Shown here one piece after another: positions 15,001-18,000 of a stretch of 18,695 nt of DNA. A program made the position numbers. This DNA is from a virus (Duplodnaviria > Heunggongvirae > Uroviricota > Caudoviricetes), in the IMG/VR virus record IMGVR_UViG_2529293069_000015, positions 1-18,695 of that record. One strand, written 5' to 3'. How positions within the stretch are numbered: the stretch's first letter is position 1; every line of letters starts with the position of its first letter.

Positions 15001-18000
15001 TCGTCTCCTCATTACCACCACCGAACTGAAGTGCAATTCGGTGATCGAGTTCACTGTCACAGAGGTCAACCACACGACCACAGAGACAGCACTGCCCGGC
15101 ATCCCTGAGCCAGATATGACGCTTGAGGGAAACACGTGCACTGCCACTGACACGACGCTGTTCACCCTTCAGAATATTCACCCGCCGGGTGTTCAGAGTT
15201 TTGATTCTGCCCGGTAACGTACGAAGCACAGCCATGTAAAATCCTCGCCATATAGCTTGTCACCAGAGGAAAGAAAATGTCATCGAAAAACCGGCCCCGC
15301 AGAACAACAACCCGCAACATCCGATTTCCAAACCAGATGATTGAACAAATTAACATCGCTCTTGACCAGAAAGGTTCAGAAAATTTTTCTGCGTGGGTCA
15401 TTGAATCTTGCCGCCGGGAGCTGGCAGCAGACATAAAATATGCCCGTCAGTTGACTATAAAAAAGAATGATACACAGTATGCTCTGCGATGGCTGTTCAT
15501 ATAACTATTTCTTTATATTGCTGAATTTATAAAAACTCACAGACATTAGCTGTATTAATTCCGAATTGAAATAATCAGCCATATAGAATAAAAATAAAGC
15601 ATAACAATAATAATCTTCTACCCAATCAGTACATTACTGCTGTGACTCCAACACGGCAGTTTTTTTATTGAACAGATTCCAGTTTCTTCCACCATCGCAC
15701 CGGACGGGCGACCATGAGGGGAGAACGCCGCGCTCCGTTTACGCGGTAAACCCCGGTGTGTATCGTTTTTGATTATCCCCGCACACTCTCGCAGAGGAGT
15801 CTCCCTGTCGGGCTGCGGTCTCTGTTAATGCAGGAATACGGCGACGATACGGCGCATCAGCAAAACTTAGTTCAGGCACTGAGTGCGGATATAGTCCTGT
15901 GCCCCTTCCAGCTGCTTCTGCATGGTCATCAACCGTTCTCTGAGGATGAAATAATCCCGTTCAGCGGTGTCTGCCAGTCGGGGGCCGGTTGCATTATCCA
16001 CGCCGGAGGTGCCGGTGGCTTCACGCACGGTACCGGAGCAGGTGGCGTTGATCCGCAGGCGCTTACGACCAGCGGCAACATCAGCACGCAGAGTTTCATT
16101 TTCAGCTCTCGCATCGGCTAACTCCCTCGAGTATTTTGCATCGAGCGCAGCAACATCACGCTGGCGCACCTGCATGTCAGTAATGGTGGCATTCGCCTGT
16201 TCCAGCTCTCTGGCTTTTTTATCGCGCTGCGCTTTGTAGGTGAGCGCGTTGTCACGGTAATGGTTTGTTGCCAGCCACAGCGCACCACAGCCAACCGCCA
16301 GGACAATAATCACCACACACAGAACACGGTTCATCTCTCTTTCACCCCACCAGTCCCGATAACGTCAGGACTCGCCAGGCGGTGGAAAAGAAAATGGCAA
16401 CCAGCATGACTAAAAATGAAATGCCGACAAGTACACAGAGGCTCTTCACCAGCGTTATGAGTTTATCTGATATCATTAGCCACCCCATCAATCCGCCTTT
16501 GTTATTTTCCCTTTGCCTGTATCAGCCAGGACAAAATCAATCAGCATATTCGCTTCATTTACCAGCGTACGGATTTTTGATACATGCGCGGCTTTAACCT
16601 GTTTCCACTCATTCAGCCCGGTAGCAAACACACTGGCAATGTTTTTATCCCGTTTCATGTCAGCACAAGCCTGGTTGAGTTCTTCCATCACGCTCATTTT
16701 ACGGGGATTAACGACAAAACCCTTCGTCCAGTACTCGTAAAGAACATCGTCGCACTCTTCCTGATACCGGATGACCTTATCGCGGATTTCGGGTTTTACT
16801 TTGTTGGGATTAATGGTTTGTAGCCAGCCGGCAAGTTTTCGAAGTGGCATGGACACCATATTGCGTTGTTTCCCATCCTCAGCAACCATAACGATTTCCG
16901 TTATAGTTGACGCAAAACGCTGTCTTAACTTAGCCAACTGTGATTGCCAGGCCAGCCCCATCCCCGCAACGACAGGTTTCATGGGAACGTATGGTTCGCC
17001 ATTATGGTTAACTACATAAAGAGAGTTGCCGTGAAACGGCACGGCCATCATATTCATCGGTTATTTCCTTTTAGTGATGAACCTTGTCTCACAGGAATCC
17101 AGCCCACAGAAAGGCACCGACAGCCAAACCGGTATCCTCAAGGGTCATCCTGAAAGGTTCTGTGTTGTGAGATGCGCGTGAGATGCGCAGAAATGACAAA
17201 GGCATCATTACGGTGCCTGAGTGTTAAACAACTGTTTTGACTTTATTCACTTACATTTTGCCAATTTGCAGGATTTCGTGTTATCCATCCATGTAAGCAA
17301 ACCTCATTTTTCAGCAAAATATTCTGCTTATCTGTCGATTCCCCAGCACGCCAGCGCGCTCTCCTGGTCACGACGGGATACCTGACCGTAACAGTTATTT
17401 GAGCGAATACGGCAGTCCCTGCCACCGTCCTTAATCCACCAGCGAATAGCTTCGCAGGCACCTTTTCGATCTCCTGCATTAATCCGTCTGTAAAACGTCG
17501 ACGGGAAACACTTACCGGGGCCAATGTTGTACGGACAGAATGACGCAATCCCCGCTTTCTGGGGTTCGGTCAGTGGCACTCTGATGTTTTTCTCCACCCA
17601 TGCCAGCGCCTTATCACGCTCAATGGCGTTAACCCGGTCGCATTTTTCCTTCGACAGCTTCATGCCAGGAATAACAGGCTTACCATCCACCCGGGTGGCT
17701 CCACGGCAGATGGTCCAGATACCCGCACCATCACGGTATGCTGTGGTGTGGTTACCTTCCTTTTCATCCAGAAACTGGTCGAGGATTTCAGGCGCAGACG
17801 CACCTGCGGCAATCAGCGCCAGAACGGCAGCCGACAGGCCGTATCTGATTTTTGCGTTCATGGATATTTATCAGGGTTTATCGATTTCAAATCCCTGGAT
17901 ATGTTAAGTCTTCAGGCCAGCGGTGGAGTCTTCAGAGAACCCGTAATTATTCCCGGTAGTTTTCCTCTGTAGGTTATCAACACATCCTGCGCCTCTAAAA

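Follow-up and report, generated by a model that had tools for sequence, protein, structure and literature searches.

RNA-level translational control of a phage antirepressor gene is known from sar of P22 and from c4 of P1 and P7. In the leader of the MS2 maturation gene, in hok mRNA and in riboswitch platforms that sequester the Shine-Dalgarno (SD) sequence, the ribosome-binding site is hidden at equilibrium, and an alternative fold of the 5′ part, metastable or stabilised, leaves this site open. The closest known logic is found in the IsrK-orf45-anrP locus of Gifsy-1, where an antirepressor-like gene lies behind an intrinsic terminator and read-through transcripts adopt either a silent conformation A or an active conformation B (PMC4825925). 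In addition, an 89-nt RNA, referred to as P22F, was reported from P22-infected cells, with no function assigned and no structure, family or link to translation described (PMC13397905). The locus considered here is part of an 18,695-nt stretch of Caudoviricetes DNA (IMG/VR record IMGVR_UViG_2529293069_000015, positions 1 to 18,695; hereafter the window), in which an antirepressor-like gene, ant, lies on the minus strand between the endolysin gene and Rz. The gap between endolysin and ant ends in a conserved RNA leader that in its predicted stable fold hides the ribosome-binding site of ant and that probably decides when the protein is produced.

Relatives of this leader were collected from IMG/VR (two pattern scans) and from species-representative genomes (one scan); evaluation with covariance model R1 then yielded at least 118 distinct copies, each ending at a start codon. 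R1 finds a single copy in the window. The parts of the window copy, given in the sense of the gene-strand RNA, are the following:

17055-17192, minus strand: conserved structured leader of 138 nt, ending with the AUG of ant (R1, 136.6 bits, E = 3e-38)
17150-17157, minus strand: invariant anti-Shine-Dalgarno (anti-SD) CCUUUCAG, pairing with 17067-17074 in the minimum-energy fold of all nine subtypes
17067-17074, minus strand: SD region CUAAAAGG, paired with the anti-SD in fold II
17158-17164, minus strand: 5′ strand of helix P1, CACAGAA, pairing with 17105-17111; 5 of 7 pairs changed on both sides
17105-17111, minus strand: 3′ strand of P1, UUCUGUG, in the apical loop of the long hairpin
17173-17189, minus strand: P0 hairpin, UGCGC-AUCUCAC-GCGCA, pairing in 89.5-90.8% of alignment cells, with pairs changed on both sides; a hairpin is seen here in 117 of the 118 leaders
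17178-17183, minus strand: first pseudoknot strand, the P0 loop UCUCAC, pairing with 17087-17092
17087-17092, minus strand: second pseudoknot strand, GUGAGA, an invariant internal loop of 6 nt within the long hairpin that stays unpaired when the full-length leader is folded to minimum energy
17191-17217, minus strand: weak terminator-like hairpin, GGCA...UGCC followed by UUUGUCAUUU, directly 5′ of the leader (read from the sequence)

These parts can be assembled into two folds. Fold II is a long irregular hairpin of about 30 paired layers, predicted at -39.6 kcal/mol in the window and representing the minimum-energy fold in all nine subtypes. Across the family, the SD region CUNAAAGG pairs with CCUUUCAG, the variable N position being a mismatch. 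In 103 of the 118 leaders, the minimum-energy fold leaves no SD position unpaired, and the median unpaired probability is 0.026. On a MAFFT alignment that had not been fitted to any structure, 92.5% of the cells of fold II are paired and 13 of its 30 pairs have changed on both sides, a value reached by none of 500 shuffles and compared with at most 46.5% in controls in which the strands were slid; this covariation was reproduced on the genome set. The leader is therefore SD-sequestering in the sense that the SD is paired in the stable fold by a helix that is both conserved and covarying.

Fold I is a 5′ three-way junction, in which P1 closes two hairpins, one of them taking up the anti-SD. P1 is formed by the 7 nt that directly precede the anti-SD and by part of the apical loop of the long hairpin, and about 15 complementary sequence pairs occur at this position across lineages, with new letters in distant members (CACAGAA/UUCUGUG, CUCAGAA/UUCUGAG, CCAAGAA/UUCUUGG and CGAGAG/CUCUCG, as well as CCCGAG/CUCGGG, CACCGA/UCGGUG, GUCGAA/UUCGAC and CCAUGAG/CUCAUGG). 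In two tests, 85.7% and 83.9% of the fold I cells are paired and 11 of 25 and 16 of 25 pairs have changed on both sides, respectively, with none of 500 shuffles reaching the observed value. Folded to minimum energy, the 5′ ~90 nt adopt fold I in six of nine subtypes, as do window transcripts 88-112 nt long, and P1 is present in 62 of 106 prefix folds as against 13% of shuffles, yet never in the full-length minimum-energy fold. Its predicted energy in the window is -25.9 kcal/mol bare and -36.9 kcal/mol with an additional helix formed by a duplicate of the P0 loop.

Since the 5′ strand of P1 abuts the base of a hairpin of about 30 layers whose loop it must reach, folds I and II would exclude each other. 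A CCGG-type segment of the 5′ strand has two complementary partners, a near one in fold I and a far one in fold II, and both of these co-change with it. Each of the two mutually exclusive folds is supported by compensatory changes. The many G-U pairs on the gene strand, which read A-C on the other strand, indicate that this structure belongs to the gene-strand RNA. Hammerhead-like and K-turn readings of the junction or bulge were considered by eye only and dropped, the sequence being unsuited to them.

The P0 hairpin at the 5′ end of the leader is maintained through compensatory changes such as GCGU/ACGC and GCGCC/GGCGC, and its loop pairs with the internal loop of the long hairpin. This loop-loop helix is paired in 98% of cells across 85-100 distinct sequences, with the middle pair being G-C in 32, U-A in 32 and A-U in 20 cases and a single exception. 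Distant members have replaced the letters of both strands (ACGCCC/GGGCGU, UUCGCG/CGCGAA, CCGAAA/UUUCGG and CUGACG/CGUCAG). Independently of any alignment, Watson-Crick complementarity of at least 5 nt between the loop and the 3′ strand was detected in 111 of 123 leaders, as compared with 12% of shuffled loops. The geometry deduced from these pairings would be that of an H-type pseudoknot with a 1-nt first loop.

P0 also accounts for an exact tandem repeat in the gap:

17167-17177 and 17178-17188: exact 11-nt tandem, GTGAGATGCGC twice on the plus strand, equivalent to GCGCATCTCAC twice on the gene strand (read from the sequence)

The initial annotation had recorded this 11-bp repeat with its first copy placed correctly; the second copy is contiguous with the first, at 17178-17188 rather than 17179-17189. 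It is the sole exact period-11 tandem in the window, and with an expectation of about 6e-5 in 270 nt and about 0.004 in the whole window it is not a chance occurrence. Repeat unit 1 corresponds to the 5′ stem and loop of P0 and unit 2 to the 3′ stem followed by a duplicate of the loop sequence; the two GCGC blocks thereby form the stem, the first ATCTCAC is the loop and the second its duplicate. In the window this duplicate can itself pair with GUGAGA, which is the source of the -36.9 kcal/mol given above. Conservation of the repeat as such was not borne out, since only 3 of 118 related leaders carry the tandem in exact form, as against 117 of 118 with the hairpin at the same place. The 11-nt repeat is hence a local by-product of the conserved leader hairpin.

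This result bears directly on the picture suggested earlier for the gap, namely that of a promoter or operator region in which the 11-mer is a protein-binding repeat and ant an independently regulated moron. The repeat is indeed exact and not due to chance, and TGCGC-N7-GCGCA is also a palindrome at the DNA level. However, a sigma-70 scan with a simple consensus found zero promoter-like sites on the gene strand of the gap, so that the proposed promoter was not recovered, and a search by eye or scan for a LexA box and for sigma-54 and sigma-70 promoters gave nothing convincing. Moreover, the hairpin is kept through compensatory changes while the exact repeat is rare among the leaders, and the P0 loop covaries with a site 90 nt downstream, which is unlike a DNA operator. 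A protein-binding repeat next to a promoter is consequently regarded as highly improbable. The zero promoter-like sites, together with a terminator ahead of most leader copies, instead suggest that ant is probably transcribed only by terminator-resistant late transcription.

Beyond the window, a search with the gap revealed that its proximal ~135 nt recur ahead of different genes. In Salmonella ST104 the leader stands before a KilA-N gene that follows Rz, in phage Dewey before an HNH_3 gene, in a Klebsiella phage before a KilA-N+P63C gene that follows a tail gene, and in HK639 and P13374 before Rha genes. Counted as distinct proteins, the genes behind the leader are distributed as follows:

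Rha + ORF11CD3: 29 proteins
KilA-N: 21 proteins
HNH_3: 13 proteins
KilA-N + P63C: 8 proteins
KilA-N + ORF11CD3: 5 proteins
P22_AR_N + ORF11CD3: 3 proteins
Rha (228 aa): 2 proteins
ANT: 2 proteins
TerB: 1 protein
75-aa protein of unknown type: 1 protein

The homing-endonuclease-like HNH_3 (+AP2) genes (L004:3132-3683, L009:2628-3188 and 11 other loci) fall outside the Bro network discussed below. The contexts upstream of the leader differ as well. An intrinsic terminator precedes it in ST104, Dewey, the Klebsiella phage, HK639, P13374 orf55 and ECP1, and relatives carry at this place a clear GC hairpin with a T-run, the T-run lying no more than 45 nt upstream in 95 of 114 copies. The ant copy of P13374 has a 6-bp version of the upstream stem, that is, a weaker hairpin followed by UUUGUCAUUU, as in the window. 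Because homology to other phages begins and ends at the edges of the element and joins it to different genes, the ~135 nt could be imagined as a passive recombination linker, a homology patch for module exchange with no function as RNA. Such a patch would not be expected to show compensatory double changes in four helices and a pseudoknot, nor G-U pairs specific to one strand, nor a spacing to the AUG that is conserved, which leaves this explanation scarcely credible.

All 30 R1 matches in the species-representative genomes are from Enterobacterales or from probably mis-binned contigs, and about half of the pattern matches of the genome scan were chance occurrences outside Enterobacterales that R1 discarded. 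Three short contigs from metagenome-assembled genomes labelled Collinsella, Cellvibrionaceae and Bacillota (L207, L174 and L203, respectively) carry full-score leader matches; the score of L207 is identical to that of an E. coli contig, and the three are probably mis-binned enterobacterial phage DNA. Two leader copies occur in ECP1, P13374 and several IMG/VR contigs. In Stx-type contigs, a second, divergent leader (41-47 bits; L086:9586-9718 and L043:2118-2250) lies ~4.6-5 kb upstream of the ant leader and keeps P0, P1 and the pseudoknot with different letters, the copy in L086 preceding a TerB-domain gene. A Hamiltonella defensa prophage (L235:3471-3610) has two leaders in one lysis cassette, before ant and before a KilA-N gene, both upstream of Rz.

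Several other explanations for the conserved stretch were tried. A leader peptide, for which a 39-aa open reading frame (ORF) at 17089-17208 overlaps the leader, was rejected because relatives differ by indels of 1 nt and the HK639-type subfamily lacks the AUG. Anti-small RNAs of the AgvB/AsxR type are located at the PR′ moron site (PMC4104026), and Pas small RNAs (sRNAs), which according to a preprint adjoin this holin/lysozyme operon, lie next to the holin operon rather than in the gap; both were rejected. Rfam 15 gave zero matches at the gathering score or at E <= 5 in 15500-18695, with sar, isrK, C4, riboswitches and ribozymes included, and for the P22 and HK639 leaders it gave only noise at E <= 10.

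The reading favoured here, to which a probability of roughly 0.6 is assigned, is that ant is cargo in the late operon and that a pseudoknotted leader with two states gates its translation. In this model, ant would have no promoter of its own and would be reached by read-through transcription from the Q-antiterminated late operon, with the terminator directly upstream keeping other transcription out. The leader would then gate translation, fold II being the off state and fold I the on state. Fold I would form first during transcription and be stabilised by the pseudoknot. Relaxation to fold II with time could yield a short burst of translation from each mRNA; alternatively, some factor could hold one of the folds. 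Changing the anti-SD from CCUUUCAG to CCAAACAG is predicted by the model to raise the output of ant.

The second of these options leads over to a riboswitch-like or factor-dependent switch, in which fold I and the pseudoknot would constitute an aptamer or a platform for a protein or sRNA, and release of the SD would depend on a signal instead of on folding kinetics. Two exclusive covarying folds together with a pseudoknot are typical of riboswitch expression platforms, some stretches of the leader are invariant, and the difference between fold II (-39.6 kcal/mol) and bare fold I (-25.9 kcal/mol) means that fold I may need something to hold it. There is also a precedent in Gifsy-1, where IsrK is a trans-acting RNA that activates a silent antirepressor-type mRNA (PMC4825925). 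On the other hand, pairing in one of the two folds already explains most of the invariant nucleotides, and the genes downstream are regulators and nucleases rather than the enzymes or transporters of a ligand-type association. Nor is any candidate partner RNA consistently encoded nearby, given the differing upstream contexts. A switch of this kind is accordingly considered rather unlikely. The wider proposal that the leader represents a new class of signal-responsive riboregulator, riboswitch-like or factor-binding, with which Enterobacterales temperate phages, including Stx phages and P22, time regulators of the Ant, Rha and KilA-N types, is likewise considered rather unlikely.

P22 itself provides both a further member and a further interpretation. 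The leader of P22 rha scores 73 bits with R1, and P22F corresponds to its hairpin part, so that P22F (PMC13397905) belongs to the same RNA family. This leader spans L232:1505-1647, equivalent to NC_002371 39504-39646, and the RefSeq start of rha (locus position 1576) falls within it. The family consensus puts the start at the ATG 1645-1647, giving a Rha of 178 aa instead of 201 aa; the annotated P22 start thus probably lies inside the leader. Accumulation of an 89-nt RNA matching the hairpin part during P22 infection (PMC13397905) is what would be expected if the hairpin were a processing site or a stable small RNA, excised by an enzyme such as RNase III or RNase E. The hairpin could then serve to split the ant mRNA from the endolysin mRNA, thereby activating or destroying it, or to supply a trans-acting RNA such as P22F. 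The size of the hairpin fits as well, RNase III substrates being in the size class of about 30 paired layers. Against excision, the ends of P22F, when its sequence is read against the fold, are unlike those of a staggered double-strand cut, and a pure processing site leaves the covariation of fold I unexplained. In addition, the leader always adjoins the start codon with constant spacing and its pairing takes in the SD, which argues for action in cis. A processing site or stable small RNA is judged quite improbable.

A number of points nevertheless weigh against translational gating by two folds. The on and off states are deduced from pairing alone, and the pseudoknot may go with either fold or with both. 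As P22F stops 6 nt short of the AUG, it could have been processed to act in trans instead of being an element in cis. The 5′ prefix of the HK639-type subfamily favours another pairing than fold I, and the 288-nt gap as a whole is predicted to be no more stable than its shuffles (z = -0.02, an uninformative value). As the number of lineages is limited, cell counts overstate how many events were independent, and the shuffle control should not be read as a probability. Because the pattern scans needed two exact anchor motifs, the range of the family and its gene associations are biased to close relatives. With respect to transcription, the upstream hairpin of the window is weak, having a 4-bp stem, and promoters were scanned for with a simple consensus only.

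The genes around the leader, all on the minus strand, are arranged in the order holin, DUF1327/YdfR, endolysin, gap, ant, a small membrane ORF, and Rz with Rz1:

18467-18261, minus strand: holin, P21-type (ORF and Pfam)
17912-18256, minus strand: DUF1327/YdfR gene, between holin and endolysin (ORF and Pfam)
17328-17861, minus strand: endolysin R, the upstream gene in the late operon (Pfam Phage_lysozyme, E = 1.5e-24)
17058-17327, minus strand: 270-bp gap between endolysin and ant (ORF boundaries)
17237-17327, minus strand: resident flank 3′ of endolysin, left boundary of the exchangeable module, common to ant-less phages (PhiR12_1 alignment)
16488-17057, minus strand: ant, 189 aa, ATG start (P22_AR_N at residues 5-113, ORF11CD3 at residues 122-164)
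16342-16476/16491, minus strand: small single-pass membrane ORF of 44-49 aa (phrog_4906, E = 1.3e-27)
15867-16334, minus strand: Rz (Pfam Phage_lysis, E = 4.9e-50)
15929-16114, minus strand: Rz1, embedded in Rz (ORF)

The ORF map agrees with the initial annotation in that a 189-aa ORF behind a 270-bp gap separates endolysin from Rz/Rz1, and adds the membrane ORF of 44-49 aa between ant and Rz, which had gone unmentioned. The endolysin is labelled lysozyme or endolysin in phages of 99% identity. Relative to lambda, the DUF1327/YdfR gene (17912-18256) is a second non-lysis insert in the cassette. The small membrane ORF lies directly before Rz and is kept in ant-less relatives, with a homologue in PhiR12_1; its ATG overlaps the ant stop codon (TGATG), so that its translation may be coupled to that of ant here.

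That ant was inserted into the lysis cassette as cargo, as had been proposed, is borne out by comparison with the ant-less PhiR12_1. This phage shares ~90 nt 3′ of endolysin and the small membrane ORF before Rz, with an unrelated 61-aa ORF in place of ant, which sets the limits of the insert at ~17236 and 16492. The flank at 17237-17327 is 84-90% identical in phages with and without ant, and a long stem UUGCUUACAU/AUGUAAGUGAA is predicted in it. Thus, within the late operon of a Stx-type prophage, ant is an exchangeable cargo module placed between endolysin and the small ORF/Rz. The arrangement of a moron, with its own promoter upstream and a terminator downstream, was not found, a terminator-like element being present upstream instead; this is a weak negative from a simple scan.

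The product of ant matches P22_AR_N (PF10547) over residues 5-113 with 154.6 bits (cut-off 30.7, E = 1.4e-45), in agreement with the Ant-like N-terminal domain proposed initially. The C-terminal half, which had been described as having no assignable function, matches ORF11CD3 (PF10549) at residues 122-164; this match is marginal (27.0 bits, cut-off 25) and is backed by precomputed matches in all 120 listed ant homologues. Residues 121-189 also match phrog_16011 (E = 1.8e-50), and PHROG 524, "anti-repressor Ant", spans residues 1-189 (E = 2.4e-112) with only positions 7-210 of the 317 in the profile being matched. Homology over the whole length is thereby present at the level of annotation, with more than 2,500 homologues of the same two-domain architecture (P22_AR_N + ORF11CD3), and the family concerned is not functionally characterised. 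ORF11CD3 is common to Rha- and KilA-N-type proteins, and both domains belong to the domain-swapping "Bro network" (PMC10111431).

These homologues occur in Escherichia, Salmonella, Serratia, Xenorhabdus, Photorhabdus, Proteus, Providencia, Sodalis, Arsenophonus and Hamiltonella, and the order holin, endolysin, a gap of ~170-200 nt, ant and Rz is kept in prophages of Xenorhabdus, Proteus and Hamiltonella. A 2.7-kb region of the window shares 99.4% identity with phage YYZ-2008 and 98.6% with many Stx1a phages; these records label the ORF antirepressor or Ant. The stretch from endolysin through ant to the small ORF was found in 693 of 5,426 complete E. coli genomes (coverage >=80%), and the same gene order in 121 phage records. 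The gene is therefore real, very common and already annotated as a phage gene of the Bro network.

With regard to function, a sequence search of the PDB with ant gave only noise, PADLOC-DB defence models had zero matches to Ant, the small ORF or DUF1327, and no holin, endolysin or spanin family is among the Pfam and PHROG matches of ant, whose ant-less relatives lyse without it. No functional study of a lysis-cassette ant was found in the literature, a survey of Stx phages having only counted Ant families. The ant of phi24B (PMC3064807) was rejected as the same protein, as it is a different Ant with C-terminal similarity to P22 Ant. Antirepressor, DNA-binding regulator and exclusion factor are candidate roles only.

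Three further observations concern the margins of the window and of the operon. An Rfam match to sar RNA is present at 26-92 on the plus strand (66.7 bits, gathering score 43); given its position at the window edge adjoining tail genes, an immI-like remnant may lie just outside the window. A 173-aa ORF at 533-1054 (plus strand), opposite in strand to the tail genes, has a Pfam match to the helix-turn-helix Sigma70_r4_2 below the cut-off and is possibly a fragment of an insertion-element gene. Upstream of the holin, a strong terminator-like hairpin (18523-18549, minus strand) of 11 pairs and a T-run has no Rfam match; in HK639, a match to STnc100 is located at the equivalent position.

Genes of the Ant, Rha and KilA-N types are among the commonest unexplained genes of temperate phages, and some are harmful if mis-expressed or switch on neighbouring prophages. 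If the gating model is true, a portable translational lock would explain how such genes are safely carried in a highly transcribed late operon, and a single element would be available for mutation in P22 and in Stx phages, where induction controls toxin release. It would likewise add a pseudoknotted two-state RNA to the cis-regulators of bacteria, and P22F gains a structural explanation from the leader family. Should the leader respond to a signal, a cellular or phage signal would be coupled to antirepression and to cross-talk between prophages.

Compared with the described systems, the protein and its setting both depart from those of P22 immI. The Ant of the window, at 189 aa, is without the C-terminal ANT/P22_AR_C domain and hence the full two-part architecture of P22 Ant, and in place of a context with arc/mnt and with sar at the gene, ant sits between endolysin and Rz with the sar match 17 kb away. 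As for the RNA, sar and c4 are antisense RNAs directed at a ribosome-binding region, whereas the element described here is a self-contained cis leader. The locus of Gifsy-1 resembles it in its two-state logic, but is of the C4 type and not homologous: the Rfam isrK and C4 models match Gifsy-1 and not the window, R1 scores at most 12 bits on Gifsy-1, and homology of the leader to IsrK/C4 was rejected. Furthermore, IsrK acts through a short RNA in trans and a 45-codon upstream ORF, in contrast to a leader with neither a conserved upstream ORF nor a known partner RNA. The likeness to the MS2 leader, hok mRNA and riboswitch platforms is a functional analogy with no sequence relationship, to which the leader adds a pseudoknot between a hairpin loop and an internal loop. 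What is new here, with the gene itself being known, is thus the leader: a conserved, pseudoknotted, two-state RNA that lies outside Rfam and has previously been glimpsed only as P22F.

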